A DNA stretch of 64,000 nt from a virus. This document shows, piece by piece, positions 1 through 13,181 of the stretch. The DNA is taken from IMG/VR virus record IMGVR_UViG_3300010885_010784, positions 6,081 through 70,080 of that record, one strand, 5' to 3'. Within the stretch, counting starts at the first letter, position 1. The number at the start of each line of letters is the position of its first letter. The notes beneath the pieces were generated by a model. It had not been told where the DNA came from and did no database searches. It was given only the letters and a program-made list of their open reading frames with translations. The position numbers and the translations under genes were made by a program.

Positions 1-140
1 TAAACTACCAGAGCGAATACTTCACTAGCATTTGGAGTGGAGTAACTGTTACATTCCCACTTAGAGAGTTGCCAACAAACGAAGAGTATGTTGAAGCGTT
101 CAGGGTTGCTCTTGAAGAGAAACGGAAGGCTAGGGCTTAG
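1..140 (+). CDS. hypothetical protein, 5'-truncated by window edge
   Basis: Open frame from nt 3 (NYQSEYFTSIW...KRKARA) to TAG 138-140, followed by a terminator. Confidence 0.6.
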   Translation, partial: NYQSEYFTSIWSGVTVTFPLRELPTNEEYVEAFRVALEEKRKARA

Positions 141-153
141 GCTCTAGTTTTTT
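130..153 (+). terminator. intrinsic terminator
   Basis: CTAGGGC-TTAG-GCTCTAG hairpin followed by T6. Confidence 0.7.
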
Positions 154-176
154 GCGCAAAAATCCAGGCTAAGATA

Positions 177-202
177 AATGTCAGTGGTCCCCTGTATAAT
201 AG
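177..202 (+). promoter_or_regulatory. ATGTC-box/TATAAT phage promoter
   Basis: AATGTCAGTGGTCCCCTGTATAATAG; ATG lies 6 nt after TATAAT. Confidence 0.8.
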
Positions 203-206
203 AACT

Positions 207-332
207 ATGAAAGATGAACAAGCAGAAGAAATCCTAGAAGCATTACAAGACTACTACGCAAATCCCCAAGACTACAGCATTACGGACTTGGAAGAAATTT
301 TCCAAGATAGAGACCCATTCGAGTTTCTATAA
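207..332 (+). CDS. small acidic leaderless protein (41 aa)
   Basis: MKDEQAEEILEALQDYYANPQDYSITDLEEIFQDRDPFEFL; not in ORF track; starts at predicted +1. Confidence 0.7.
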   Translation: MKDEQAEEILEALQDYYANPQDYSITDLEEIFQDRDPFEFL

Positions 333-356
333 TGTCGGTGGTATCCCTTATAATAG
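331..356 (+). promoter_or_regulatory. ATGTC-box/TATAAT phage promoter
   Basis: AATGTCGGTGGTATCCCTTATAATAG. Confidence 0.8.
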
Positions 357-381
357 AACTACACAAACAAGAAAGAAGAAA

Positions 382-864
382 ATGGAAAACGAAAACCAGA
401 CCCCAGAAATCCTAGAAATCACAGGCGACCTAGTAGCAGTATCAAGCGAACACCCTGTATTGCTACACTACAAAAAGCAGATTGAAGACTTACAGGCACA
501 GGTAGAGCGAACCAATACTCTCGTTGCCGATAAAGACGCTACTATCTACCGCTTGCGTGATAAGTATCGCACAGCAGAATACAAGTTAGAAGAAGTCCTA
601 AAAGGCTTGCTTGATGATGAAGAGATTGAGTTAGAACACGCTAAGACCATTGCGGAAATCTTTGACGGCATTACACTAACTAAGCAGATTACCATTCAAT
701 ACGACATTACTGCTACCGCCACTTTGGAAGTGCCTTATGGTGCTGACGCTGATGATGTTGCGAGTTCTTGTTATGTTGAGCGTGTTGAGTTCTACACCGA
801 CTTTGAAGATGCCGAAGTCTTGGAGAGCGAACACGACACTAATGATTGGCGTGATGTGTCTTAG
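382..864 (+). CDS. acidic early hypothetical protein with N-terminal coiled coil
   Basis: 160-aa ORF with purine-rich RBS, downstream of promoter. Confidence 0.8.
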   Translation: MENENQTPEILEITGDLVAVSSEHPVLLHYKKQIEDLQAQVERTNTLVADKDATIYRLRDKYRTAEYKLEEVLKGLLDDEEIELEHAKTIAEIFDGITLTKQITIQYDITATATLEVPYGADADDVASSCYVERVEFYTDFEDAEVLESEHDTNDWRDVS

Positions 865-887
865 AGTTCCCTTTCTTTCTCTAAGAC

Positions 888-914
888 TAACCTGAGCAAG
901 TTATAAAACTGCTC
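888..914 (+). ncRNA. conserved H-type pseudoknot element, copy 1
   Basis: TAAC-CTGAGCAA-GTTA-TAAAAC-TGCTC; P1 TAAC/GTTA, loop GAGCA pairs with TGCTC. Confidence 0.7.
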
Positions 915-923
915 ACCTTTACA

Positions 924-1040
924 AGCCAGTAGCGATTGTCTGCAGATGTGTCGGCTCTGGTTCTCTGTGTGGAGATTCACACGGCGTTGGTAGTGAGGGC
1001 GATAGTTGCGAGACTACGCTGAAACACGAAAAACTACCGC
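924..1040 (+). ncRNA. candidate multi-hairpin structured RNA
   Basis: Stems AGCCAG/CTGGTT, CTGTGTGG/TCACACGG and GGTAGT/ACTACC enclosing a GCGA-tetraloop hairpin; no credible ORF. Confidence 0.4.
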
Positions 1041-1095
1041 TTCAAATTTCTGCGCCCCGAAATGTTACAGTTGTGTTACGAAATGGCATTTGCTA

Positions 1096-1126
1096 TTTAC
1101 AATGTCCGTGGCTACCTGTATAATAG
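1096..1126 (+). promoter_or_regulatory. promoter TTTACA-N17-TATAAT with ATGTC box in spacer
   Basis: TTTACAATGTCCGTGGCTACCTGTATAATAG. Confidence 0.8.
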
Positions 1127-1202
1127 ATACATACAGCAAGACAGCAATAAGAAGCAAGACAAAAATCATTTACGAAGTGGAAAAAAATTTCCCAGAAAAT
1201 GC

Positions 1203-1231
1203 TTGACTTATGAGTTGTCTTCCTGTATAAT
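1203..1231 (+). promoter_or_regulatory. canonical housekeeping-sigma promoter
   Basis: TTGACT-N17-TATAAT. Confidence 0.8.
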
Positions 1232-1294
1232 AGAAGTATCAACAAAAGTTGGTATAAAACAGCAACACAACCCTTCGGGAGAAAAGAGATACAA

Positions 1295-1456
1295 ATGCCA
1301 GAAATCAAGGTAGGCGACCGCTACGAGACCAAGACTAACAAGTTTGTTGGTGTCGTTCAGGAAATCGCACAGAACAAGAACGGCTCATTCCGTGTTCGTT
1401 TGGACATTGACGGAAAAGCACACTGGACTTCGGCTCAGGGAACTGTCCTAGCCTAA
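1295..1456 (+). CDS. small beta-rich (SH3/KOW-like) protein, 53 aa
   Basis: MPEIKVGDRYETKTNKFVGVVQEIAQNKNGSFRVRLDIDGKAHWTSAQGTVLA; RBS GAAAAGAG; not in ORF track. Confidence 0.75.
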   Translation: MPEIKVGDRYETKTNKFVGVVQEIAQNKNGSFRVRLDIDGKAHWTSAQGTVLA

Positions 1457-1467
1457 ATCTTATAAGG

Positions 1468-1500
1468 CAGACCTGAGTATGTCTGGCAAAATAACTGCTC
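1468..1500 (+). ncRNA. conserved pseudoknot element, copy 2
   Basis: CAGAC-CTGAGTAT-GTCTG-GCAAAATAAC-TGCTC. Confidence 0.7.
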
Positions 1501-1513
1501 ACCCCAAAAACTA

Positions 1514-1539
1514 AATGTCGGTGGTCTCCGCTATAATAG
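1514..1539 (+). promoter_or_regulatory. ATGTC-box/TATAAT phage promoter
   Basis: AATGTCGGTGGTCTCCGCTATAATAG. Confidence 0.8.
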
Positions 1540-1584
1540 ACCTTGTAAGAAACAAAACCCTACTAACAAAGAAAAGAGATAACT

Positions 1585-2037
1585 ATGGCAAGAGCCATTT
1601 CAGTAAAAATCCCAACAGGCAAAGTCATTGAGATGATTGAGCAGAAGATTACTCAAATCAACGAAGACATTGCTACCTACCCTGCTCGCAAGGCACAATA
1701 CAAGGCAGACCTAGAAGCCTACACCCAATCGGTTGTTCGTCTTCTAACTGACCTGCTAAACACTCGGGGAACTGAGTTGCTTTCTAACGAAGACAGCAAC
1801 GAGAACATTCGTGTTAGCACCAACTACAACAACTCTGTGGAAATCACAATCGGTAGAGAACTAACTGCCGAGTTGGTAAAGCCAAAAGAGCCAGAGAACC
1901 CAGAGCCAAACGGCTACTATGGTCGTGTCTATGGTTCTAAAAAGGCAGAGTTGGAAAAGACACTCAAACTACTTCGTATGAGTGAGCAGGAAACAATCAC
2001 TTCGTCTGCTTACAACAGCGTTTTGGAACTGCTGTAA
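1585..2037 (+). CDS. early hypothetical protein
   Basis: 150-aa ORF, RBS GAAAAGAG, between promoter and pseudoknot/terminator. Confidence 0.85.
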   Translation: MARAISVKIPTGKVIEMIEQKITQINEDIATYPARKAQYKADLEAYTQSVVRLLTDLLNTRGTELLSNEDSNENIRVSTNYNNSVEITIGRELTAELVKPKEPENPEPNGYYGRVYGSKKAELEKTLKLLRMSEQETITSSAYNSVLELL

Positions 2038-2057
2038 AACCATAGGCTTACGCCTAA

Positions 2058-2084
2058 ACACCTGAGCAAGTGTCTAAACTGCTT
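2058..2084 (+). ncRNA. conserved pseudoknot element, copy 3
   Basis: ACAC-CTGAGCAA-GTGT-CTAAAC-TGCTT. Confidence 0.7.
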
Positions 2085-2128
2085 CCTGAATTGGGGTAGC
2101 GACTAGACAGGTAAAATAATTTCGCTAA

Positions 2129-2158
2129 TCTTCCTGTCTTCGGGCAGGGAGATTTTTT
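2129..2158 (+). terminator. intrinsic terminator (UUCG loop)
   Basis: TTCCTGTC-TTCG-GGCAGGGA followed by T6. Confidence 0.8.
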
Positions 2159-2226
2159 GCGCAAAAATCCTGCGCCCCGATTTATAACAGTTTAGTTACG
2201 AACCCTATTTATTTTTGCCTAGACTA

Positions 2227-2257
2227 TTTACAATGTCGGTGGGTAGGTGTATAATAG
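2227..2257 (+). promoter_or_regulatory. promoter TTTACA-N17-TATAAT with ATGTC box
   Basis: TTTACAATGTCGGTGGGTAGGTGTATAATAG. Confidence 0.8.
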
Positions 2258-2295
2258 GACTATCAACAAAAAACTACTAATGAAAGGTGTGTCTT

Positions 2296-3315
2296 ATGGC
2301 TCACGAACTAGAAATAAATAACGAAACAGGCGAAGCGTCTTTTGCTTCTCTACGCCAACCTGCTTGGCACAAACTCGGCACTGTGTTTGAAGAAGAAGTA
2401 AATACCGCAGAAATGCTAAAACTGGCAAAACTAGACGGCTGGAATGTTCGTCTTGAAGATGTCGCAATCCCTACTGGTTTTGAGAGCGACAAGTCTTACT
2501 CGTTCGTATCTCGCACCAATCCATTCAACGCAGACCAGACAGACATTCTTGGTGTCGTTGGTGAGCGTTATGTTCCATTACAGAATGAAGACTTGTTCTC
2601 GTTTGGTGATAACCTGCTAGACGGCGGTGGTCGCTGGGAGACTGCTGGCTCTATCAAGGGTGGTCGTCAAGTGTTCGGCTCTATCGCATTGCGAGACGGC
2701 ATTACACTAGACCCTAATGGTCGTGCCGATAAGATTGATAACTATCTTCTAATCAACACTTCTCACGACGGCTCTATCGCTATTCAGGCAAGTATCACGC
2801 CTGTTCGTGTTGTGTGTGCTAACACTCTCAACCTTGCTCTATCTTCATTCAAGGGTAAGTCTGCTTCTAAGCAGTCATTCAAAATCCGCCACACTTCAAC
2901 TGCCGAAGGTAAAATCGCAGTTGCTCGTGAAGCGTTAGGTTTGGCTTCTAAGTATCTTGATGAGTTTTCTGTTATGGCTAACGCTATGATTGAAAAGGAA
3001 ATCACTAAGGCTGACTTTGATAAGATTGTCGCTCTTGCTTACCCTGCCCCTGAAAAAGACAGCAAGGGTTCATTCAAGAAACACGACAGCAAAGTTGATT
3101 TGCTAAACGCCATTTATGTCGGTCAATACAACGACACCATTTCGGGAACTGCTTGGGGAGCATACAACGCTCTAACCGAACGCCTAGACTGGTATCGCTC
3201 GGCTCGTGGTGGTTCAAACGAGAGCATTTACGCAAGTGCTTCTGGCTTTGACCCTGTGATGAACGCAGAGAAGAACCGCCTAATGAAGATTGTTCAATCA
3301 GTCGTAATGGCTTAG
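2296..3315 (+). CDS. DUF932 / phage-plasmid-like protein (TIGR03299 type)
   Basis: MAHEL..PAWHKLG, WETAGSIKGGRQVF, NTSHDGS, PVRVVCANTL and GTAWGAYNALTE motifs; RBS GAAAGG favours ATG 2296. Confidence 0.9.
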   Translation: MAHELEINNETGEASFASLRQPAWHKLGTVFEEEVNTAEMLKLAKLDGWNVRLEDVAIPTGFESDKSYSFVSRTNPFNADQTDILGVVGERYVPLQNEDLFSFGDNLLDGGGRWETAGSIKGGRQVFGSIALRDGITLDPNGRADKIDNYLLINTSHDGSIAIQASITPVRVVCANTLNLALSSFKGKSASKQSFKIRHTSTAEGKIAVAREALGLASKYLDEFSVMANAMIEKEITKADFDKIVALAYPAPEKDSKGSFKKHDSKVDLLNAIYVGQYNDTISGTAWGAYNALTERLDWYRSARGGSNESIYASASGFDPVMNAEKNRLMKIVQSVVMA

Positions 3316-3327
3316 TCCATTCCAAAT

Positions 3328-3354
3328 AATCCTGAGTAAGATTTCAAACTGCTC
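3328..3354 (+). ncRNA. conserved pseudoknot element, copy 4
   Basis: AATC-CTGAGTAA-GATT-TCAAAC-TGCTC, ending 4 nt before tRNA-Glu. Confidence 0.7.
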
Positions 3355-3358
3355 ACTT

Positions 3359-3433
3359 GCTCCCATAGTTTAGTGGTTAGAACGCCAGGTTTTCATCCTG
3401 GTGGCGAGAGTTCGATTCTCTCTGGGAGTGCCA
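3359..3433 (+). tRNA. tRNA-Glu(UUC)
   Basis: Acceptor GCTCCCA/TGGGAGT, anticodon arm CCAGG-TTTTCAT-CCTGG, TTCGA T-loop, encoded CCA. Confidence 0.93.
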
Positions 3434-3525
3434 AATTTTTGCGCAAATTTTCGCCATCATTAATAGCCATGCTAACTATAATAATCTAATTACGAACACC
3501 AAAATCTTTTCCCCGAAATTGCCTA

Positions 3526-3556
3526 TTTACAATGTCGTAGGTATCCTGTATAATAG
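3526..3556 (+). promoter_or_regulatory. promoter TTTACA-N17-TATAAT with ATGTC box
   Basis: TTTACAATGTCGTAGGTATCCTGTATAATAG. Confidence 0.8.
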
Positions 3557-3584
3557 ATACTATAACCCAAGAGAAAGAGATACA

Positions 3585-4016
3585 ATGACAGACTATCCTG
3601 ACCGCTATTCACTACGCACCAAAGGCACTATCGTTCACTTGATAGATGTTGAGAAGGCTACTGCTCTAATCAAACAGCGTTTCAACAATCAAGACGCAGA
3701 CATTACCGCCGAAAGAATGGCAATCGTAAATGGCAAGAATGGTCTTGCTACTGTTCTTGACGAAGGCGTTGGCTGGTTCGCAGACAAGGACGGCAAGTTG
3801 CCTATTAACTATTGGGGCAAGAATGGAAACAACGGCTACCTAGACATCACCGTTGAAGAGTTGTATCCACTAATCAGTGATGAAACTATTGACCTTGCTG
3901 ACCATGTTCGTATCTTTGGCGACCGCCTAGAAACAAACCTATCCACTTGGCAATACTACGCCAAAGGCTATCCACAGGACAAGATGTCGGTGGTTCCTGC
4001 TACAATGGTATCCTAA
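3585..4016 (+). CDS. early hypothetical protein
   Basis: Start moved to ATG 3585 (MTDYPDRY) after RBS GAAAGAG; the track start runs through the promoter. Confidence 0.8.
   Translation: MTDYPDRYSLRTKGTIVHLIDVEKATALIKQRFNNQDADITAERMAIVNGKNGLATVLDEGVGWFADKDGKLPINYWGKNGNNGYLDITVEELYPLISDETIDLADHVRIFGDRLETNLSTWQYYAKGYPQDKMSVVPATMVS
3983..4008 (+). promoter_or_regulatory. ATGTC-box promoter variant inside upstream CDS
   Basis: GATGTCGGTGGTTCCTGCTACAATGG. Confidence 0.65.
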
Positions 4017-4034
4017 CAGAAAGAGACAAACCCT

Positions 4035-4262
4035 ATGAAAAAATACTATGTAAAAGTCCAAGTCAATTATGACGGAGACATTGAAGCAAACTCACCAGAA
4101 GAAGCCGAAGAACTTGCTTGGCATTCTTATTATGGCGACAACGCTACTCTAATCTACGACAGCGTTGAGAGCATTGATGTAGAAGAGTATGACCACTGCG
4201 AAGAGTGCGACAATCCAGAAGACGAATGCGAATGCGAAGAAGAAGAGAGTGAAGACGAATGA
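4035..4262 (+). CDS. small very acidic protein (IEAxSxEEAEExA motif, Cys/Glu tail)
   Basis: 75 aa; shares motif with 5493..5699. Confidence 0.8.
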   Translation: MKKYYVKVQVNYDGDIEANSPEEAEELAWHSYYGDNATLIYDSVESIDVEEYDHCEECDNPEDECECEEEESEDE

Positions 4263-4414
4263 CCCAACTTGAAAGCCTAAAAGCAGAACGCAAAGCCATT
4301 GAAAACGATTTCAAGAAGTTTGATGGCAGACTAAATGATTGGACGCACGACCTTTTGTTGAGCCGTATGGAAATGCTAGATAGTATGATTAGCATTGAAG
4401 AATACAATGCCTAA
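4259..4414 (+). CDS. small hypothetical protein (51 aa)
   Basis: MTQLESLKAERKAIEND...; ATGA overlap with upstream stop. Confidence 0.65.
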   Translation: MTQLESLKAERKAIENDFKKFDGRLNDWTHDLLLSRMEMLDSMISIEEYNA

Positions 4415-4501
4415 AAAGGAGAAATGTGAACACACTTTCATTTGTGATTATTGCATCAATTGTGGTGCTTATTATATTTCTTATGCAGTAAAGGAGCAGC
4501 A

Positions 4502-4741
4502 ATGACTAGAACATTTAGAGCACAGATTACATGGGACTTTGAGTTTGAGGAAGATGGCTACACCGAGAGTGAGCGTGAGTATCTTGAAGAACAACTTGAC
4601 GAAGGAGAGACCCTTGAACCACGCACGGAAGAGCAAATGATAAACTATGCTCATAGTGAACTACTGGATGCATTGTATAACAGTATAAAGTACAATGACC
4701 TTTATCAAATGATAGATGTAGTGGAAGTAAATGAAAAGTAA
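4502..4741 (+). CDS. small acidic hypothetical protein
   Basis: MTRTFRAQITWDFEFEEDG...; RBS AAGGAG. Confidence 0.75.
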   Translation: MTRTFRAQITWDFEFEEDGYTESEREYLEEQLDEGETLEPRTEEQMINYAHSELLDALYNSIKYNDLYQMIDVVEVNEK

Positions 4742-4868
4742 TAAAGAAACTATCTTGGAACTCATTGATTCATTCATGGAGATTCCAGATGTGGACAGCC
4801 TTCCTACAACGACTATTCTAAATTTGTTGAGGCTAAGAATTGTTGACCCTTACTTCTTTCAGGAGTAG
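4731..4868 (+). CDS. small hypothetical protein (45 aa)
   Basis: MKSNKETILELIDSFMEIPD...; coupled to upstream ORF. Confidence 0.55.
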   Translation: MKSNKETILELIDSFMEIPDVDSLPTTTILNLLRLRIVDPYFFQE

Positions 4869-4966
4869 GGCTTCAATTTCTGCGCCGCAAAACATTATGT
4901 CAAGTAACCATGCTAAACATCAGAACCCGATTACGAAGAGGTAAAAATTTCCCCAGGTTTTGGGTA

Positions 4967-4997
4967 TTTACAATGTCAGTGGTATCGGTTATAATAG
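4967..4997 (+). promoter_or_regulatory. promoter TTTACA-N17-TATAAT with ATGTC box
   Basis: TTTACAATGTCAGTGGTATCGGTTATAATAG; ATG 6 nt after -10. Confidence 0.8.
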
Positions 4998-5001
4998 GTA
5001 C

Positions 5002-5232
5002 ATGACAATAAAATATGTAGAAAAATCAACAAGAGTATCTGATGTATCGTACTGGGATGAATTGTATCATTCTGATGTGGCTACCGTTTACGAAGCCTCT
5101 AACTACCGTGACTACTACCGAGTAAAGACTAGTAAGACTACTAAGTATTTCAAAGGTGAGAGTGCTTGGTCTGCCGTGCAACGCTATGTTGTAGACGCAG
5201 GTGACTTTGGTGGCTGGGGTATCTTCCGATGA
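5002..5232 (+). CDS. leaderless hypothetical protein
   Basis: MTIKYVEK...KTTKYFKGESAWSAVQRY. Confidence 0.75.
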   Translation: MTIKYVEKSTRVSDVSYWDELYHSDVATVYEASNYRDYYRVKTSKTTKYFKGESAWSAVQRYVVDAGDFGGWGIFR

Positions 5233-5447
5233 ACATCAATCCTAAAGCAATTAGTGATACAACTATCCCTATCCACGACTTAGTACATGGTGAGTTGAAG
5301 AGCCTTATACTTGCAGCAGAAGAGCAAGTGGAAGCGTCGGATGAAGACCTTGCTAACTATTGGAATGGAAGGTTAGACGCATATGCTGAATTATATAAAC
5401 TAATATATGATTTGATATTTATGCGAGAAGACCTTGACAAACAGTAA
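5229..5447 (+). CDS. hypothetical protein
   Basis: 72 aa; ATGA overlap. Confidence 0.7.
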   Translation: MNINPKAISDTTIPIHDLVHGELKSLILAAEEQVEASDEDLANYWNGRLDAYAELYKLIYDLIFMREDLDKQ

Positions 5448-5462
5448 CCCATACTGTATAAT
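5434..5462 (+). promoter_or_regulatory. consensus housekeeping-sigma promoter
   Basis: TTGACA-N17-TATAAT. Confidence 0.85.
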
Positions 5463-5492
5463 TGATATATAACCCTTAGAGAAAGAGAATCA

Positions 5493-5699
5493 ATGGCAAC
5501 ATTTGATGTAACCCTATCCTTTCACTTTGATACCGAGTATCAGGTAGAAGCAGATAGTTATGAAGAAGCAGAAGAAAAAGCAATGGCAATGGGTCAAGAG
5601 TGGAAACCTTATTCATCTGAATTAGGATATACTCACGACTGGTATTCAGTAGACATTGAAAACTGTTTTACTAACGATGAGTTGGATGAAGATGAGTGA
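5493..5699 (+). CDS. small very acidic protein (VEAxSxEEAEExA motif)
   Basis: 68 aa; paralogous motif to 4035..4262. Confidence 0.8.
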   Translation: MATFDVTLSFHFDTEYQVEADSYEEAEEKAMAMGQEWKPYSSELGYTHDWYSVDIENCFTNDELDEDE

Positions 5700-5865
5700 G
5701 TGCGACTGCGAGAAGGTTGTTTGTCCTAAACATCATGGAGCATTTGATTGCACACCCTTCTGTGACATTTGTGAAGGTAACACAGAATACTGCACTACCC
5801 ACGATGAATGGGAAGCAGAACAAGCAAAGACTTATCTAGCACAGTATGGAGAAACATATGAGTGA
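5692..5865 (+). CDS. small Cys/His-rich (zinc-binding) protein
   Basis: MSECDCEKVVCPKHHGAFDCTPFCDICEG. Confidence 0.7.
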   Translation: MSECDCEKVVCPKHHGAFDCTPFCDICEGNTEYCTTHDEWEAEQAKTYLAQYGETYE

Positions 5866-6097
5866 TTTCGTTACTGAAAAAGAATTCGATGATGCCATAG
5901 ACCTTCTATATTCATTCGTTGATAAGTTTGTTAATGATGATTCAGAAGACTTCTCTATGCAACTAACAGAACTAACTAATCTAGCATACATGCAGGGATG
6001 GCATAAAGCCATTGACATGGTATTAGATGTCAGTGGTAACATGTATAATGGATTCGATAGCCCAACCCTACAAGAACTGGAGCAACGCATTGTCTAG
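5858..6097 (+). CDS. hypothetical protein
   Basis: MSDFVTEKEF...; RBS GGAG. Confidence 0.7.
   Translation: MSDFVTEKEFDDAIDLLYSFVDKFVNDDSEDFSMQLTELTNLAYMQGWHKAIDMVLDVSGNMYNGFDSPTLQELEQRIV
6026..6051 (+). promoter_or_regulatory. ATGTC-box promoter inside CDS
   Basis: GATGTCAGTGGTAACATGTATAATGG. Confidence 0.7.
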
Positions 6098-6098
6098 T

Positions 6099-6443
6099 AT
6101 GACTAACGAACAGTGGGAGAAAACCTATCTCCCTATTACAAATCCTATTACAGATGAAGGCATTTCATTTGAGACCTACGGTGAAGAAGTTGAGTACGTC
6201 GCTTCACATGACGAGCATAACGTATGGACAGAACTAGACGGAGACAATGGTGTATACATTGTCAATGGGTTCCACTATGTGAATCGTATCCAGTACTACG
6301 TTACAGAAGTACCGTGGACCGAAGACGTTGAGATTGTAGTCTGTGAGTACATCGACTGCGATTGCTACGACGGTGAAGTGGACCCTAAGAACAACTGCGA
6401 CGAATGCGGTGGCACTGGAACTAAGACTGTGTGGGGTGACTAA
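6099..6443 (+). CDS. hypothetical protein with C-terminal CxxCxGxG zinc motif
   Basis: MTNEQWEKTYLPI...FETYGEE...VNRIQYYVTEVPW...CDECGGTG. Confidence 0.8.
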   Translation: MTNEQWEKTYLPITNPITDEGISFETYGEEVEYVASHDEHNVWTELDGDNGVYIVNGFHYVNRIQYYVTEVPWTEDVEIVVCEYIDCDCYDGEVDPKNNCDECGGTGTKTVWGD

Positions 6444-6823
6444 TGGTAAGAGAATGGAATGAGAACATGCAAAAAGACTGGGACCTTAACATCTTCTTTA
6501 GAGAAGAGTGGGATGAAGAGAACGGCACTACATGGGATAACGTTATAACTATCAATCCTATTGTATATACATGGGACGGCGACCGCTCTGACAACTGGTA
6601 CACTGACATCTTGTACACTACCACGTTTGCAGAGGCACGGTATCTGAGGAGCCAGTATCCAGAGAACGAGTACGGTATGGACTGGACAGATAGCCTACAG
6701 GGCTTCCTAGAGATTGCTCCGCCTAGGTTGAAGTCATTGCTTGGGACCCTGCCTGGTGCGGATGAGACTGATGAGATTAATAGACTTGGTGGGTTGAGAG
6801 CACTCCCTACCAATGACGGATAG
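6443..6823 (+). CDS. hypothetical protein
   Basis: 126 aa; TAATG coupling. Confidence 0.75.
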   Translation: MVREWNENMQKDWDLNIFFREEWDEENGTTWDNVITINPIVYTWDGDRSDNWYTDILYTTTFAEARYLRSQYPENEYGMDWTDSLQGFLEIAPPRLKSLLGTLPGADETDEINRLGGLRALPTNDG

Positions 6824-6873
6824 GTTAGGGGTTTCCGAGTCCGTCACCGTGGGGAAGGTAGGTAGATTGCTAC

Positions 6874-6902
6874 TTGCTTTCCCCACAACATTTTGGTATA
6901 AT
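6874..6902 (+). promoter_or_regulatory. housekeeping-sigma promoter
   Basis: TTGCTT-N17-TATAAT with TG extension. Confidence 0.7.
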
Positions 6903-6925
6903 AGAACATAAGAGAATAGAGAAAA

Positions 6926-7126
6926 GTGAAGAAGAGTAATGAAGAAAAATTTGCCACAGTTGTAAGTAATCTAATTAGTGATTTGAGATTTGACTTAGAC
7001 TTAGCAGGAAAGTATTTGGCTTGGTATTTACCGAATGTCGCATTCAGGCGATTTATGGAGATAGCAGAAACAGCCAAAGAAGAACGAGAAGGAAAGAAAC
7101 ATGAGCGAGACAACATTAGAGAGTAA
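6926..7126 (+). CDS. hypothetical protein
   Basis: GTG start, 66 aa. Confidence 0.7.
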   Translation: MKKSNEEKFATVVSNLISDLRFDLDLAGKYLAWYLPNVAFRRFMEIAETAKEEREGKKHERDNIRE

Positions 7127-7367
7127 GGCAGACATTCTGTCAGAACTATGGTTAGGCTATAAGAACGACGACAACTTTGAAGATTTCTTTGCCTACAATG
7201 ACCTAGGGCTACCACTAGCCTATGCTGTAGCAAATGGCATAGTGAAGGGAACAGAGGTGTCTACTAAGTTTATCAATGAAACCTTTATGTTGCTCCTAGC
7301 CAGCCTAGAAGTAGAAGACGAAGGGTTCAGCACACTTGACGACATATTCATTTCAGCACCACGTTAA
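7101..7367 (+). CDS. hypothetical protein
   Basis: 88 aa; FFAYNDLGLPLAY motif. Confidence 0.8.
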   Translation: MSETTLESKADILSELWLGYKNDDNFEDFFAYNDLGLPLAYAVANGIVKGTEVSTKFINETFMLLLASLEVEDEGFSTLDDIFISAPR

Positions 7368-7392
7368 ATGTCGGTGGTAGGGAGTATAATAG
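7367..7392 (+). promoter_or_regulatory. ATGTC-box/TATAAT phage promoter
   Basis: AATGTCGGTGGTAGGGAGTATAATAG; ATG 6 nt after -10. Confidence 0.8.
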
Positions 7393-7396
7393 AACT

Positions 7397-7558
7397 ATGG
7401 ACAAAATAACATACGAAGTATCACGCTCACTAATCGAACACAACTACGACATTGTTCTCACAGACGAGCAATGGCAGGAAGTCAGCGACACCCTGTATAA
7501 CGCATTAGATAGTTATACTTGGCTTGACTTGCCTAGCATAATCAAAGACCTTGATTAG
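7397..7558 (+). CDS. small acidic leaderless protein (53 aa)
   Basis: MDKITYEVSRSLIEHNYDIVLTDEQWQEVSD...; not in ORF track. Confidence 0.7.
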   Translation: MDKITYEVSRSLIEHNYDIVLTDEQWQEVSDTLYNALDSYTWLDLPSIIKDLD

Positions 7559-7566
7559 ATAAAGAG

Positions 7567-7602
7567 ATATGCCTCTGCCTGGTGCAGGGGTGTATTTTTT
7601 TT
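7567..7602 (+). terminator. intrinsic terminator ending the early region
   Basis: ATATGCCTCTGC-CTGGT-GCAGGGGTGTAT followed by T-tract. Confidence 0.8.
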
Positions 7603-7698
7603 GCGCAGAAAATTTATAACAATCCCATAACGCCTATTGACAAATTTGAAAAAATGTGATAGACAAATCCCAAATAGGATATTTAACTATGTAACTAT

Positions 7699-8500
7699 AT
7701 TACGAAGGGGCATATTTTTTCCTGGAACTTTTATGTTTATTTTATTTAACATATCCAGACATTACGAACCAAAAAATTTTTTTCCCGAAAGTTTGTTTAT
7801 ATATATAAAGATAGATAGACATTACGAAGGACCTAAATTTTTCCTGGAATATTTAAATGTCAGAGGTATGTGGTATATGTATTACTAGGGGTATTACGAA
7901 CACTTCTTTATATACCCCGAAGGGCTGGCGGTAGCCAGGGTATTACGAAGCCTATGATTATTTCCCCTAGTAGTATATATAACACATGTCTTGATATGGG
8001 ATTACGAACGTGTATATATTTTCCATATTTTTATATATATTTATTGATAATTATTCTCATTAACATATATAAATGTTTATTTTATTTAATAAAACATTAC
8101 ATTTTTATAACGAATTTGTGGCTATGGGAATATCACAATTTTATAACGATATGGGTATTTGGGGAAATGATTACGAAGCCTATTAGTGATTTGCTCCATT
8201 ACACACTATCTTATTTAAAATCCTTATCCTTAATGAAAACCATTATCATCAGTAAGATTAATCTGTGGATAAACCTGTGGATAACTGTGTAAAAATCCAG
8301 GGTATCAGAAGGAAATGGCTATCCCAAATAGGTGTTTTGGGGTGTTAGCCTTTATCCCCCATATGCGTTTCTCTCTAATCAGAGATATGCTGTAAGGCTT
8401 AGGAGAGGATATAAGGTCATATCTCTTGAAGTGTATTTGCATTAGGTGTATTCTTTCTACTAGGGATTACGAAGCATCTTTTGTATGCCCCGAAAATTTT
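7699..8500 (+). repeat. iteron-like ATTACGAA direct-repeat array in AT-rich non-coding DNA
   Basis: ATTACGAA at 7699, 7761, 7821, 7893, 7942, 8001, 8170 and 8466, mostly followed about 14 nt later by T-tract-CC(C/T)(G). Confidence 0.8.
8264..8284 (-). promoter_or_regulatory. two perfect DnaA boxes (TTATCCACA)
   Basis: TGTGGATAA at 8264-8272 and 8276-8284; degenerate third box TGTGTAAAA at 8286. Confidence 0.75.
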
Positions 8501-8501
8501 G

Positions 8502-8708
8502 TTAATAAACTGAGTTTGTTATTAGAGCAACGAGTTCGTGATAGGTAGACTCTGATATGTAGTTCATTGTGCCATAGTCATGTAGCAGTGCTATGATACG
8601 TTCACGTTCTTTATCTATATTAATGTTTACGAACTCATCAATAGCCCTCACATCTTCTTTAGTGAATGTGCTATCAAGTACAAGCATCTTGTTCTCTATT
8701 TTAATCAT
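8502..8708 (-). CDS. small protein, ERERI family
   Basis: DKERERIIALL. Confidence 0.7.
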   Translation of the reverse strand: MIKIENKMLVLDSTFTKEDVRAIDEFVNINIDKERERIIALLHDYGTMNYISESTYHELVALITNSVY

Positions 8709-8911
8709 CTATACCCCCTGAGAAGTTCTAGGATATCCATCATAAATACATATCTTGTGTGTGATGCTTCATCATCCCAAGAGACATCCTTTTCCAACTC
8801 TAAACCTTTGTTAGAAAGAATATTGAGAATACGCTCACGCTCTTCCTTGACACCAGTTCTATAAGCATTGTCAATTGCACTTAGAATGTTTAGTCCTTCA
8901 TCATGTATCAT
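8705..8911 (-). CDS. small protein, ERERI family
   Basis: GVKEERERILNIL; ATGA overlaps. Confidence 0.7.
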   Translation of the reverse strand: MIHDEGLNILSAIDNAYRTGVKEERERILNILSNKGLELEKDVSWDDEASHTRYVFMMDILELLRGYR

Positions 8912-9501
8912 TCTGCATTACCTATATCTCTGAAACGCTTTGGTGGATGTTGTTCATCTCCACCTGGAGTCCATAGCACGTCATTCTCATTGTAGAATCT
9001 AGCCATTACGAAGAACAAGTCTGATAGCCTATTTAGGTATTGTGCTACTAGAGGATTTACTTCTCGTCCAGTTACATTCCATACCCTGCGTTCTGCTCTT
9101 CGAACAATTGTTCTAGCAACATGGAACAAGGCAGAAGTCTGGTTGCCTCCAGGCATTACGAACGACCTTAAAGGTTCCAGAGTTGAGTTGTATAAGTCTA
9201 TATCTTTCTCAAGACGACTAACCATATACTCAGTGATTCTGAGTCTACCATCATTAGGAGCATATGGAGTACATAGGTCTGCACCTACATCAAATAGTTC
9301 ATTTTGAATTCTATCAAGAATGTTCTTTCCATTATCCCCAAATGTGCCGAAAGCCATAATCATTCCAATAGCAGCGTTTGCTTCATCTACTGTAGAATAT
9401 GCTTCAATTAGTGGGTCAGTCTTAGATACCCTGGAATTATCTCCCAAAGCAGTTGTTCCATTATCACCAGTCTTGGTGTATATTTTACTTAAGATTACCA
9501 T
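8908..9501 (-). CDS. pduO: PduO-type ATP:cob(I)alamin adenosyltransferase
   Basis: KIYTKTGDxGTT, TVDEANAAIG, IQNELFDVGADL, ARTIVRRAER and YLNRLSDLFFVMAR signatures. Confidence 0.93.
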   Translation of the reverse strand: MVILSKIYTKTGDNGTTALGDNSRVSKTDPLIEAYSTVDEANAAIGMIMAFGTFGDNGKNILDRIQNELFDVGADLCTPYAPNDGRLRITEYMVSRLEKDIDLYNSTLEPLRSFVMPGGNQTSALFHVARTIVRRAERRVWNVTGREVNPLVAQYLNRLSDLFFVMARFYNENDVLWTPGGDEQHPPKRFRDIGNAE

Positions 9502-9664
9502 ACTTGCCTTTCAATAGCGATATTGCACCTCTAAGGTTGACACCACTCTTATCGTGTAACATTTCTTCTAGGATGTGAATGATACGCTCTCTCTCACGCT
9601 GTTCACCAACCTGTATCCAATGTCTCTTTACGACATTAAATTTTGCTCGTTCTATGAATCCCAT
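9485..9664 (-). CDS. small protein, ERERI family (59 aa)
   Basis: MGFIERAKF...GEQRERERIIHIL; not in ORF track. Confidence 0.65.
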   Translation of the reverse strand: MGFIERAKFNVVKRHWIQVGEQRERERIIHILEEMLHDKSGVNLRGAISLLKGKYGNLK

Positions 9665-9891
9665 CCTACTACCTCTTTCTCTGGCTCATGGTTTTTAATT
9701 GCTTCAATAATTTCTTTACGAGTGTATGGGTCTTCTTTCAACCAATCCACATCGTGTATATATCTATTAACTTTATCAATGATTTGTTTGTGTTGCTCGT
9801 CCATACCTGCTTCGAAGCCATGCTCCCAACCAAGGTCATAACCTTGCTGTACTAGACGCAAACGCCATTTAAATATCTTAGGCAACTGCAT
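9652..9891 (-). CDS. hypothetical protein
   Basis: Likely start MQLPKIFKW at 9891 after RBS GAGGAG. Confidence 0.7.
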   Translation of the reverse strand: MQLPKIFKWRLRLVQQGYDLGWEHGFEAGMDEQHKQIIDKVNRYIHDVDWLKEDPYTRKEIIEAIKNHEPEKEVVGWDS

Positions 9892-10381
9892 AATTCTCCT
9901 CGTGTGCAACCCAGTAATACTTGCATGGTTCTTTACGATTAGGGCAACAAGGCTGGTTATCTCCATCGCTCAATGCACTATAGAACTCAAAGTAATAAAT
10001 TGGGTCTTTCTTGTATAGGTTTGCTTTGTGTGTAGCATTAACCTTAGCCATCTTAACAGAATCATTAAACCACTCAGGGTCATTAAGACCCCAATACTTA
10101 CCCTCGGACTTATACAAAGCCTTAAGGTTCTCTAGGTTCTTGTCTGTCTTAATACCACGCTCGTCTGCTTCGCCTACCATAGACATAATGTAATTCCATA
10201 GCACTGCTTCACTACCACGCCACATCTTCACGGCTGGATGGTTACGCCACCCTGCTCGTGGGTCTGGGTTGCCTAGGACTTTTAGAATCTGGTAGCCTTC
10301 TAGGATTTGCTTGTTAAGACGCTTGTTGTCTAGTGCTTGTGCAGACATAGTAAAGTCTTTATATGGTAAAAAGGTTTGCAT
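9878..10381 (-). CDS. pyrimidine-dimer DNA glycosylase (DenV) / MSMEG_6728-like protein
   Basis: MQTFLPY..F..SA..LD.KRL.KQ..E..QIL...WRNHPAVKMWRG signature. Confidence 0.85.
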   Translation of the reverse strand: MQTFLPYKDFTMSAQALDNKRLNKQILEGYQILKVLGNPDPRAGWRNHPAVKMWRGSEAVLWNYIMSMVGEADERGIKTDKNLENLKALYKSEGKYWGLNDPEWFNDSVKMAKVNATHKANLYKKDPIYYFEFYSALSDGDNQPCCPNRKEPCKYYWVAHEENYAVA

Positions 10382-10438
10382 ACGTTCTCTCTCGTTTAAT
10401 GGACCTATAGTCAATTATACAGTAAATTCGCTTGCTTG

Positions 10439-10636
10439 TCAAGCGTTGAACTCTATATTTACCGCCGAACTTTCAACCAATTCACGCAGAACTTTATACT
10501 GTATAAATCCGAGGTTGCTTCGCTTCTGCTCCGCTTCCAGGATTGCGAACAATCTCTCTCGTTCGTTCATAATACCAATAAGGTATGAGGTAAGGTCAGT
10601 GACCCCCTGTGCATCTAAATCTTTTAATTTTCCCAT
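10439..10636 (-). CDS. small leaderless protein, ERER family
   Basis: MGKLKDLDAQ...GIMNERERLFAIL; TTGACA-N17-TATACT ends 6 nt upstream. Confidence 0.7.
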   Translation of the reverse strand: MGKLKDLDAQGVTDLTSYLIGIMNERERLFAILEAEQKRSNLGFIQYKVLRELVESSAVNIEFNA

Positions 10637-10687
10637 GTATCTAGTATAAGGCACACAAAGGTCTTTGTCAAGTGCTATAATAGAAAT

Positions 10688-10882
10688 ATGACAGACAAAT
10701 ATCGCTACATTATTTACCCTGAACGCACCTACGTTGTGGATGTCGATGGGGATTCCGTTGAAGTCCAGGGACAGGACATTGTTAATATTATTCCTGATAT
10801 GCTTCGCAAGAAGTACATTGAGGCTTACTTTGGATACGAGAGTATCTCATTTGACAATACACAGGAAGGTTTGGTAGAATAG
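10688..10882 (+). CDS. leaderless hypothetical protein
   Basis: TGCTATAAT 6 nt upstream of ATG; divergent from 10636. Confidence 0.7.
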   Translation: MTDKYRYIIYPERTYVVDVDGDSVEVQGQDIVNIIPDMLRKKYIEAYFGYESISFDNTQEGLVE

Positions 10883-10883
10883 T

Positions 10884-10997
10884 ATGGCTGCAAAAAAGGC
10901 ATCAACACGCAACAGCAATCGTCAGAACGGTAAGGCTTCTAAGAAGTCACCGAAGATTTTTGACCCTGCAAAGCGTAGATTAGTAAAGGTTAGTTAA
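10884..10997 (+). CDS. very basic 37-aa peptide
   Basis: MAAKKASTRNSNRQNGKASKKSPKIFDPAKRRLVKVS. Confidence 0.6.
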   Translation: MAAKKASTRNSNRQNGKASKKSPKIFDPAKRRLVKVS

Positions 10998-11174
10998 ATG
11001 GATAGAAAGACTCGTAGAAACAACGAGCGTGTTATTAGTACAATCAAAAAGAAGGCTGTTAAGGATACCGAGACTTGGATTCTTAGCCTATCGTCACCAC
11101 CCACAAAATCTGAAGTCCTTGCATTCCAGGCTGGATATGTTTATGGCATGAACCGTGGGACAAGCAATGCATGA
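10998..11174 (+). CDS. small hypothetical protein (58 aa)
   Basis: MDRKTRRNNERV...AFQAGYVYGMNRG; abuts upstream stop. Confidence 0.6.
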   Translation: MDRKTRRNNERVISTIKKKAVKDTETWILSLSSPPTKSEVLAFQAGYVYGMNRGTSNA

Positions 11175-11325
11175 GTTTAAAAATCCTTATTACGAAGGAC
11201 CAGATTGTGTTTGTTGCAATCACCTTAAAGAGGATGTAGTAAAGAGCATTGTTGCAATGCTGAGAGAACAAGACTCAGTTTGTTCAGACTGGGTTATAGC
11301 ACTTATAGAAAAGGATTACGAATAG
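11167..11325 (+). CDS. small hypothetical protein (52 aa)
   Basis: MHEFKNPYYEGPDCVCCNHL... Confidence 0.55.
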   Translation: MHEFKNPYYEGPDCVCCNHLKEDVVKSIVAMLREQDSVCSDWVIALIEKDYE

Positions 11326-11326
11326 T

Positions 11327-11458
11327 ATGTGGGAAATTATTAATATAGCAATGGTAGTTGTTGGAATAGCATTGCTAATGCTTGTATCATGGGCAGTAGA
11401 CAAAGACAAGAAGAGCAAGTCGGAAGACTGGTTCACCCTAGACGACGACGACTTTTAA
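11327..11458 (+). CDS. small single-TM membrane protein (43 aa)
   Basis: MWEIINIAMVVVGIALLMLVSWAV followed by charged tail. Confidence 0.6.
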   Translation: MWEIINIAMVVVGIALLMLVSWAVDKDKKSKSEDWFTLDDDDF

Positions 11459-11610
11459 TGCATAAGTGTGGCTGGTGTATAACTGGGCATCACGAATCCT
11501 GTAAGCCTTCAGTTAGTTATTATGAGAAAACTTGGGTGTGTGAATGTCCTTGTCGTACTCAGGCTCATTCTGAGGATACTGTTCAAGACAGTCATAGCAA
11601 AAGTGAGTAG
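11458..11610 (+). CDS. small Cys/His-rich protein
   Basis: MHKCGWCITGHHESC...CECPC; TAATG coupling. Confidence 0.55.
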   Translation: MHKCGWCITGHHESCKPSVSYYEKTWVCECPCRTQAHSEDTVQDSHSKSE

Positions 11611-11740
11611 GCTTGAAATCAAATGGTTTAGGAATACCACCTAAAACAATTTCATCATTCTTAGCCTTTTCAATCATTTCCATAGTTGGAAATCCATAAA
11701 CGACATCTACCATTGGGTAGGAACAAAGTGGACAATTCAT
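11513..11740 (-). CDS. small zinc-ribbon protein
   Basis: MNCPLC..MVDVVYGFP....IVLGG....PTHFCYDC; leaderless after TATAAT. Confidence 0.7.
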   Translation of the reverse strand: MNCPLCSYPMVDVVYGFPTMEMIEKAKNDEIVLGGIPKPFDFKPTHFCYDCLEQYPQNEPEYDKDIHTPKFSHNN

Positions 11741-11746
11741 ACTACT

Positions 11747-11793
11747 ATTATACACTACATGCTTTACAATGTCCATGGTCTCTGGTATAATAG
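11747..11793. promoter_or_regulatory. overlapping divergent promoters sharing the ATGTC box
   Basis: + strand TTTACAATGTCCATGGTCTCTGGTATAATAG; - strand TGGACA-N17-TATAAT. Confidence 0.7.
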
Positions 11794-11797
11794 GTAT

Positions 11798-12184
11798 ATG
11801 ATTATTACAGACATTGACGATACCGTTTTAGAACACATGAGTTCTACCCCGATTAAAAAGACCATTGATTATATTAATTCACTTAATACTAAGGTGATTG
11901 TAATTAGTGGAAGAAGCCGAAGCATGAGAGCAGAGACAGAGAAGGCTCTCAAAGAGGCTGGACTAAAGTATAGTAGTCTTCTTCTTAATCCTTATGACTA
12001 TAGACTTACCAATAAGTGGAAGGCTGAGTGTGCTGAGAAACTTAGTGACGCTACCCTCGCTATCGACGACAATGCAGGAGCCAGGTCTGCCTACACAAAG
12101 GCTGGTATTAAGGCTATTCATCCTAACGAAGTTCCAGACATGGAAAAGTTCTGGTCTGTCTTTGAATCTAACAGCGGATACTAA
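11798..12184 (+). CDS. HAD-superfamily phosphatase (PNKP/PseT 3'-phosphatase-like)
   Basis: DIDDT motif I, SGR motif II, K motif III, IDD motif IV; leaderless start. Confidence 0.85.
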   Translation: MIITDIDDTVLEHMSSTPIKKTIDYINSLNTKVIVISGRSRSMRAETEKALKEAGLKYSSLLLNPYDYRLTNKWKAECAEKLSDATLAIDDNAGARSAYTKAGIKAIHPNEVPDMEKFWSVFESNSGY

Positions 12185-12203
12185 ATAGTACTTATAATTA
12201 AGT

Positions 12204-12416
12204 ATGGAAGACATTCAGGATATTGAAACCAGAGTAGACCAACTCTACAGCAAGATTGATGATATCAATGCTGAGTTGTATTCTCTTGGTGGCGAGGAAG
12301 AAAGATTCGAAATATTCGAAAGACTTCGTGAATTGATTTCACAAAAAGAACAAGAAAATGATTTGATTGCTGCAGCCGTGCTTGGCTGGGCTTATGAAGA
12401 ATTAGCCAACGTTTAG
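12204..12416 (+). CDS. small acidic helical protein
   Basis: 70 aa; TATAAT 5 nt upstream. Confidence 0.7.
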   Translation: MEDIQDIETRVDQLYSKIDDINAELYSLGGEEERFEIFERLRELISQKEQENDLIAAAVLGWAYEELANV

Positions 12417-13096: not shown

Positions 13097-13099
13097 ATG

Positions 13100-13176
13100 T
13101 CCCCCTGACAGGATTCGAACCTGCATTCACATCCGTTATGCACATATTGGGTAGAAACCAACGCCACTACAGAGGG
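13100..13176 (-). tRNA. atypical tRNA-Arg(UCU)-like gene lacking a normal D-arm
   Basis: Acceptor CCCTCTG/CAGGGGG, anticodon arm GTTGG-TTTCTAC-CCAAT, T-arm GCAGG-TTCGAAT-CCTGT. Confidence 0.65.
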
Positions 13177-13181
13177 TTGCA

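Follow-up and report, generated by a model that had tools for sequence, protein, structure and literature searches.

Many phages carry short repeated elements between their early genes. Cluster A mycobacteriophages (L5, Bxb1) have stoperators, repressor sites that block transcription elongation. Stoperators are 13 bp long and number 20–30 across the whole genome, mostly in the direction of transcription; the protein that binds them is a temperate phage's immunity repressor. Their consensus differs between subclusters and is matched by cognate repressors (PMC6550527). T4-type phages have promoter early stem-loop (PeSL) cassettes, in which a promoter and a stem-loop separate small, non-essential early genes; relatives exchange, gain and lose sequence at these elements. 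Exchange proceeds by homologous recombination between repeats, and a genome-specific extra word is not mentioned in the abstracts (PMC2839356, PMC4122927). T5, tf/LUZ24-like and phiKMV-like phages have localized single-strand nick sites, where position is conserved and the short consensus word varies from one relative to another. In addition, the T5 first-step-transfer region and the terminal repeats of the Streptomyces BE phages hold early modules of small one-direction genes, each with its own promoter and terminator. The host-takeover module of SPO1 is likewise the terminal-repeat early module of a phage with long direct repeats. Here, we describe a short GC-rich box that follows the 3' hairpin, T-run or tRNA of early transcription units in an uncultured phage (virus record IMGVR_UViG_3300010885_010784, labelled G000 in our comparisons). 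The window, that is, the whole stretch analysed, comprises 64,000 nucleotides (bases 6081–70080 of the 70,080-base record, which is rated 66% complete).

The boxes resemble stoperators as many copies of a short asymmetric word in short intergenic gaps of an actinobacteriophage, with a consensus that differs between relatives (PMC6550527, PMC9283540). Unlike stoperators, they are 6–8 bp long (13–15 bp in the Streptomyces BE phages), always lie behind a hairpin and occur in either orientation, and neither a repressor nor a lysogeny gene was recognised here. The early region shares with PeSL cassettes strong sigma-70-like early promoters and a stem-loop between small genes, and the elements border the segments that are inserted, deleted or replaced among close relatives. 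However, PeSL cassettes belong to T4-type myoviruses and form mini-circles, whereas this phage is of siphovirus type and closest to the Streptomyces BE phages. The boxes also share their short words, conserved positions and variation between relatives with the nick sites; unlike the known nick sites, which lie on one strand, they occur in both orientations and have no nuclease in common. The region was likened to a terminal-repeat module by its content in a record that is incomplete; homologues of its DUF932 and GP88 proteins lie within the ~11-kb repeat of the BE phages. By these analogies, the architecture would work like PeSL cassettes and terminal-repeat modules, and the box would be most like a stoperator, minus the genome-wide spread and the orientation.

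The early region covers record positions 1–13,700 (the window to ~7,620) and consists of small genes, all in one direction. The first-pass annotation had noted that GCGC looked very rare outside this region, and the counts bore this out: the 64-kb window contained 10 GCGC, compared with 77.3 ± 8.2 in 100 dinucleotide shuffles. Seven of them (154, 1052, 2159, 2172, 3441, 4882 and 7603) were early sites, each directly behind a hairpin, a T-run or the tRNA-Glu, and three (54647, 54999 and 58479) lay within late genes. All contexts quoted for the early sites were found on reading the DNA: TTTTTTGCGCAAAAATCC at 148 and 2153, TTTTTGCGCAAA at 3436, CTGCGCCCCGA at 1050 and 2170, TTTCTGCGCCGC at 4877 and TTTTTTTTGCGCAGAAAA at 7595. 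The whole 70-kb record had 18 GCGC against 78 expected. Fifteen of the 18 fell at record positions 465–13683, directly after a hairpin and T-run or after tRNA-Glu, and three lay elsewhere, where 50–64 were expected; the 6080 record bases left of the window accounted for eight sites of the same kind. The context consensus was aaaaTTTtT-GCGC-(a/c), with the forms TGCGCC (seven), TGCGCA (six) and GGCGCA (two). Thirteen of the 14 non-tandem boxes in this genome were located behind a hairpin with a folding energy (dG) of −8 or lower, and a T-run was present at 13. AGCT, CCGG, CGCG, GATC and GGCC did not occur at all in the record, with 287, 40, 45, 180 and 112 expected, respectively. GCGC thus falls into this purged class and survives almost solely in the boxes. 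TCGA, ACGT, CATG and GTAC were also depleted in the record, and CCGG, CGCG and GGCC were absent from all five large relatives as well. The GCGC sites represent the form (TGCGCM) taken in this genome by a box that makes up the upstream edge of the next early unit's regulatory region.

Relatives were found by a scan with the promoter motif, which gave 16 loci on a dozen virus contigs; ten contigs were fetched (G001–G010), with G005 and G008 representing the same phage. Because they were picked by promoter, the box played no part in their selection. The relatives keep the promoters and the early gene order, and they have boxes at matching junctions (after the early genes F13-F1, F3, F4, DUF932 and F6..F24, and before the origin-like region), with different words. 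G002 and G009 used TGCGCM / TGCGCCCC; 18 of the 20 GCGC of G002 were early, and G009 had 16 GCGC. G003 and G004 used TGCCGACC, for which all 12 and all 16 genome-wide copies, respectively, were in the early region and 0.2–0.5 were expected in the remainder of the genome. The words were GCCGACC in G005 (10 copies), GCCCGACC in G001 (13–14 of 14 copies early), TGCCCGCC in G010 (14–16 copies), GCCCGAGC in G007 (7–10 copies) and TGSSCA, as T5-TGGGCA/TGCCCA-A4, in G006 (13 copies). At least six word types occurred among 10 distinct relatives, and for the comparison with stoperators the copy number was put at 12–18 per genome; GCGC itself was counted zero times in G003 and G004 and once in G001. The words were sharply bounded within variable flanks. 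They were present in both orientations (5 plus and 7 minus in G003, 12 and 4 in G004, 4 and 10 in G001), and the box before the putative origin pointed in opposite directions in G003 and G004. Because the box works in both orientations, an element acting at the RNA level is excluded. Some boxes formed direct or inverted pairs with a spacing of 10–15 nt. Where two boxes stood less than 30 nt from each other, the second was left out of the next count; on this basis, 97 of the 112 boxes of nine genomes lay behind a hairpin of dG −8 or lower, compared with 29% of 1800 random early-region positions. A T-run was present at only 47 of the 112, and at none in G001 and G005. Strong terminators of late genes had no box.

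The same layout was found in cultured Streptomyces phages, where it is restricted to terminal repeats of ~11–12 kb. The left ~10 kb of the Streptomyces phage NootNoot contains 21 small one-direction genes, including homologues of the DUF932 and GP88-like proteins of this phage, and every GC-rich tetraloop hairpin there is followed by TGTCSGSCCCGGACA. The pattern CSGSSCCGGMC had 36 matches in the 131-kb NootNoot genome, all within 740–10124 and 121039–130423; these stretches correspond to its two terminal-repeat copies of 10,787 bp (size from PMC5764925, which also gives the repeat sizes of the other BE1 phages, T5 and SPO1). The NootNoot boxes, 15 per repeat copy, are near-palindromes of 13–15 bp and all lie on the gene strand. 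In Coruscant, GCGCCCRGCGCC occurred 32 times, all within 827–11225 and 122280–132678, with 16 per copy, of which two were inverted; the copies were nearly invariant, 31 of the 32 being GCGCCCGGCGCC. Mildred21 and Angela have the NootNoot word, so that one word is shared by three BE1 phages isolated on two host species. BillNye, Annadreamy and Kenrey have no run of small early genes at the left end and were of no use for separating host from lineage. On these observations, the word follows the phage lineage, and the box of the high-GC relatives looks like an operator for a dimeric protein. Because the layout is found in cultured relatives, the hairpin-box grammar is old and general in this phage group. 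The words motif, promoter and terminator occur zero times in the BE1 genome paper (PMC5764925), and no description of the box was found in the open literature, subscription journals and supplementary files lying outside the search. Separately, a TGTC element stands 16 nt upstream of the −10 hexamer in both groups (ATGTCGGTGG...TATAAT here, TGTCCC...TAGACT in the NootNoot early promoters), and it resembles half of the NootNoot box, TGTCSGG.

The gene content of the phage is of siphovirus type, with a 3232-aa tape measure protein, a DnaE-type polymerase, a DnaB-like helicase, a primase, a UvsX-like recombinase and a terminase. Its nearest cultured phages are Streptomyces phages of the BE group, with ~54% amino-acid identity in polymerase and terminase; a near-identity DNA search with the first 8 kb against the phage collection gave no match. 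The closest cellular matches of its GroES (~39–46%) were almost all from Actinomycetota, chiefly freshwater Planktophila and Nanopelagicaceae, and sequencing runs of two further studies, labelled as freshwater metagenome, contained 0.91–0.94 of the sampled words. A freshwater actinobacterium is the probable host. A cyanophage identity, first suggested by the site avoidance and a HIP1-like word in G001, was dropped, as GroES pointed to Actinomycetota and the closest cultured phages were Streptomyces phages.

The first-pass annotation had proposed that box, TTACGAA and promoter are held at a fixed distance. The individual values were exact: in the units at 3441 and 4882, GCGC is followed by CCATGCTAA after 26 nt, TTACGAA after 49 nt and AATGTC after 90 nt, and TTACGAA follows after 24 nt in those at 1052 and 2172. 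The units at 3441 and 4882 are ungapped paralogues, identical at 84 of 135 positions (62%), with the identity concentrated in the motifs. Across all units, however, the spacing was not fixed; the distance from GCGC to the next ATGTC core in the window was 24, 50, 74/61, 91, 91 and 254 nt. For 134 boxes in 10 genomes, the distance from box to promoter had its mode at 59–64 nt, and an ATGTC core was found within 120 nt of fewer than 60% of them. The order of the layout was box, RTAACR-N5-RTAACR repeats (7–10 and 18–21 nt past the box), TTACGA and promoter. The slot directly behind the box varies and can hold RTAACR direct repeats, tandem DnaA boxes or, in relatives, actinobacterial LexA-type boxes. 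LexA-type boxes (TCGAAC-N4-GTTCGA) or tandem DnaA boxes stand there in some units of relatives (G001 43890 and 44501; G003 193; G004 38376, 39484, 39852 and 41117; G005 49435 and 50320; G010 30715), and no LexA-type box was present in the early region of the window. This arrangement suggests that host DNA-binding proteins may be read or titrated by the early region. The idea of a multi-protein binding platform is supported in outline by the structured box-repeat-TTACGA-promoter region and the word-like box; the search for a binder was negative, as described below.

Because the box is retained against the purge, sharply bounded, uniform within each genome and different between mosaic relatives, and because it can point either way, forms pairs in places and is a palindrome in certain lineages, we infer that it is a protein site on duplex DNA. 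We therefore favour, with a probability slightly short of even, an operator-like function: a DNA-binding protein matched to the genome would use the box to mark or insulate the units of early transcription. The box would be recognised on double-stranded DNA by a sequence-specific protein, most likely encoded by the phage, whose specificity is matched to the genome. The constant position right behind the hairpin suggests marking or insulation of transcription units, and a protein bound just past the hairpin would do both. As a roadblock, it could strengthen or switch termination; alternatively, it could serve as a common handle to shut down the entire early region. Such action would parallel that of stoperators in Cluster A mycobacteriophages. 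A U-tract is required by mycobacterial RNA polymerase. Many hairpins of the relatives have none, which supports the marking or insulating role; the bound protein could supply the pause normally given by the U-tract.

Several observations weigh against this reading. All words are similar GC-rich strings of the form TGC...CC, and the word of the closest relative differs by a single base (GCGC to GGGC or GCCC); therefore, the requirement could be looser than a specific protein site. The absence of the longer words outside the early regions was not significant alone (0 compared with 0.3–7 expected). Unlike stoperators, the boxes are confined to early regions or terminal repeats and have no preferred orientation in the freshwater phages, with those of NootNoot all on the gene strand. 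In addition, the search for the binder yielded no candidate. No protein family was restricted to one box type across all its genomes; in the 48 families with at least two members in each of two types, at most 13% of the variable columns separated the types; the conserved early proteins DUF932 and F4 did not vary with the word; and identity tables gave no pattern. As most contigs are incomplete, a binder encoded by the host or on missing parts of the phage genomes could have escaped this search. F4, with an N-terminus that could point to a ribbon-helix-helix fold, was considered as the binder; its conservation among genomes of different box type counted against it. DUF932 and GP88, the sole early proteins that this phage has in common with the BE phages, were set aside because they do not track the word or are not universal.

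A more elaborate form of the operator-like reading, which we consider unlikely, treats the boxes as an address code. A fast-evolving small phage protein would read them and turn hairpins lacking a U-tract into factor-dependent terminators or insulators, thereby timing the early programme of the terminal repeat; in a variant of this idea, the boxes would be nicked to allow duplication of the long terminal repeat. If this is true, the specificity types would amount to an immunity-like or exclusion-like system in lytic actinophages, from freshwater phages to the Streptomyces BE phages.

The first rival explanation, which we also consider unlikely, is that the boxes are localized single-strand nick sites of the kind found in T5, tf and phiKMV-like phages, at which a phage nickase of co-evolving specificity cuts packaged DNA. 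The T5 major nick consensus is 5'-R/GCGCRGG-3' (PMC3517423). In the T5 record, the five major nicks corresponded to minus-strand matches at 9742, 22330, 39740, 78567 and 121273, and the first of these, in the terminal repeat's non-coding injection-stop region, adjoins a perfect hairpin and TTTT. RTTACR was found 36–38 nt from all four unique major sites, resembling the GTTACG/TTACGAA behind GCGC here. Site positions in the tf group are conserved while the consensus differs between relatives, for which its authors propose co-evolution of nickase and site. If the boxes helped to handle the terminal repeat, their confinement to it in NootNoot and Coruscant would make sense. However, the nick sites of T5, tf and phiKMV-like phages all lie on one strand, whereas the asymmetric words here occur in both orientations, including the two inverted boxes of 16 in each Coruscant repeat; because GCGC is palindromic, this genome is itself only weakly informative on strandedness. 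T5 does not avoid GCGC (199 compared with 211 expected). In its nick motif, GCGC stands between a purine and RGG; here, T precedes GCGC and C or A follows. Protein homology between T5 and this phage was limited to a weak primase match and one marginal 36-residue hit, with nothing else detectable, and a nuclease gene was not recognised in the early region. As a side observation, T5 seems to have bipartite major nick sites, since at all four unique ones CCYGCGCY is followed on the plus strand by RTTACR 36–38 nt downstream; a matching site at 107517, which is not nicked, has no such second motif.

It is also unlikely, and in our view a shade more so, that the box is part of the terminator, a GC duplex past the hairpin and U-tract that slows RNA polymerase and owes its common word to module duplication or gene conversion. 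The boxes are tied more tightly to hairpins (97 of 112) than to promoters (fewer than 60% of 134 within 120 nt), all words are GC-rich and mutually related, the closest relative differs by one base, and orientation would not matter to a clamp. An intrinsic terminator, that is, a GC-rich hairpin with a U-tract, was found at 13 of 14 boxes here, and the box is not a defining part of one. Meanwhile, strong terminators of the late region, on the other strand, do without the box. Short-tract conversion does not explain exact 8-mers in heterogeneous flanks behind differing hairpins, and a word that stays resident while both flanks are exchanged does not fit a clamp. The 13–15-bp near-palindromes of NootNoot and the near-invariant GCGCCCGGCGCC copies of Coruscant look like operators, and direct and inverted pairs have no place in this model.

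The first-pass annotation had also suggested that the elements are recombination joints that let gene cassettes be shuffled, and that breakpoints in relatives be compared. We used blastn to collect segments that reached 88% identity and 120 nt or more among the early regions of nine genomes (G006 and G008 were left out); their 60 ends were reduced to 58 without those at region borders and to 54 after merging duplicates. The ends piled up within 15 nt of boxes (12 of 54, 1.8 expected, p = 2e-7) and in promoters (9, 3.1 expected, p = 0.003), whereas other intergenic DNA received 18, with 18.0 expected, and coding sequence 15, with 31.0 expected. Because segments were counted from both genomes, the number of independent events is about half; the ends at boxes involved eleven distinct boxes. 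Over the 212 nt leading up to one box, G002 matched G010 at 92% identity; starting 13 nt past this box, it matched G004 at 91% identity for 476 nt. Nevertheless, each genome kept its own word at this junction: TGCGCA (G002), GGCGGGCA (G010) and TGCCGACC (G004). The units F47-F3 and F15..F30 were swapped between G002 and G004. Strain variants were read from assembled contigs, leaving out uncovered parts and 27–34-letter joints between promoter copies. One related strain has 67 other bases in place of 2038–2152, with homology resuming at the T-run and box at 2153, and the body of the open reading frame (ORF) at 7402–7550 is replaced in a related strain. Strain X4 lacks 918–1095 and 1134–1224, and the latter deletion joins two promoter −10 regions.

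These breakpoints, moved units and strain variants would fit dedicated joints, integron-like or PeSL-like targets of a site-specific recombinase or nuclease that move cassettes. We nevertheless regard such joints as very improbable. The word is only 4–8 bases long; its two orientations would invert segments, yet the early genes all point in one direction; the word differs between genomes that exchanged both flanks; the X4 deletions join promoter to promoter and not box to box; and no recombinase was recognised among the genes. Selection against importing a foreign word would alone place breakpoints beside boxes. The part of the proposal that stands is the shuffling itself: the repeated hairpin-box-promoter elements appear to be places of exchange between phages, as a side effect and without a generally fixed spacing.

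Least probable of all is a DNA modification or restriction target serving as epigenetic mark or decoy, for the product of the methyltransferase-like gene at window 13838–14488 or for a host enzyme: the whole family purges 4-bp palindromes, and asymmetric 6–8-bp words in either orientation, which are typical of modification enzymes, would fit, but modification gives no reason for the strict post-hairpin position or the early-region confinement, keeping 15 cleavable sites would defeat the purge, and one word is used by three BE1 phages from two host species.

The features of the early units in the window are listed in Table 1. The early region holds ~21 promoters of the form ATGTCRGTGG-N7-TATAAT. 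A generic sigma-70 scan gave 14 sites compared with 19.9 ± 4.6 in shuffles; as this is not above the shuffles, only its six top matches were used, which are early promoters matching 11–12 of 12 consensus positions. A generic terminator scan detected just one of the hairpins preceding the boxes, and Rfam at the gathering score returned tRNAs only.

Table 1. Early-unit features in window coordinates.
Feature	Coordinates	Strand	Basis
Hairpin (130–147) and T-run (148–153), end of preceding unit	130..153	+	Read; folding of 49 nt upstream of box
Box 1, TGCGCA (GCGC 154–157)	153..158	no strand	
Early promoter, ATGTCAGTGG core at 178, TATAAT downstream	172..206	+	
Box 2, TGCGCC	1051..1056	+	
Direct repeat GTTACA-N5-GTTACG, overlapping TTACGAA (1076–1082)	1064..1082	+	
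Early promoter TTTACA-17-TATAAT, 11/12 consensus, ATGTCCGTGG core at 1102	1096..1124	+	
Hairpin CCTGTC-TTCG-GGCAGG, then T-run	2133..2157	+	
Tandem boxes 3 and 4, 13 nt apart: TGCGCA (2158–2163), TGCGCC (2171–2176)	2158..2176	no strand	
Direct repeat ATAACA-N5-GTTACG, overlapping TTACGAA (2196–2202)	2184..2202	+	
Early promoter, 11/12 consensus	2227..2255	+	
tRNA-Glu(UUC), in the hairpin's place before box 5	3359..3433	+	
Box 5, TGCGCA	3440..3445	no strand	
CCATGCTAA (3467), TTACGAA (3490), TTTTCCCCGAAA, promoter TTTACA-17-TATAAT (3526–3554)	3467..3554	+	
Hairpin (4848–4870) and T-rich tail	4848..4880	+	
Box 6, TGCGCC	4881..4886	+	
CCATGCTAA (4908), TTACGAA (4931), TTTCCCC, promoter (4967–4995); paralogue of the 3441 unit	4908..4995	+	
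Hairpin (7572–7590) and T-run closing the last early unit	7572..7601	+	
Box 7, TGCGCA	7602..7607	no strand	
Direct repeat ATAACA-N5-ATAACG after box 7	7616..7632	+	

Other elements were observed beside the boxes. A conserved hairpin in the 3' untranslated region (3'-UTR), CCTGAGCAAG-N7-9-AAACTGCTCAC with the stem GAGCA/TGCTC, lies between stop codon and terminator of several early genes (window 890–917, 1474–1503, 2061–2088 and 3331–3357; also in G002, G004, G007, G009 and G010). It corresponds to the pseudoknot named in the first-pass annotation and has no Rfam match. The 185 non-coding nucleotides from the F3 gene to box 2 (865–1050) include a number of GC-rich inverted repeats, so that a structured RNA may be encoded there. 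The non-coding stretch at 7690–8470 has about nine copies of ATTACGAA-N11-14-TTTTCC(C/T)nGAA, spaced by ~50–70 nt. Past these copies, at 8264 and 8276, come two perfect DnaA boxes in tandem (TGTGGATAA). Together, these look like a replication origin directly after the last early unit.

Most of the genes that large lytic phages use for early host takeover lie in regions with little annotation, and the regulation of these regions is poorly understood. In the phages compared here, from uncultured freshwater phages to laboratory-grown Streptomyces phages, a hairpin followed by a genome-specific GC-rich word marks every early unit. This rule explains how a restriction-type word survives in a genome that purges it, and shows where related phages exchange gene units. 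It also provides a handle for finding the regulator or nickase that would act at these sites, and the near-palindromic boxes of NootNoot and Coruscant make the question directly testable at the bench.

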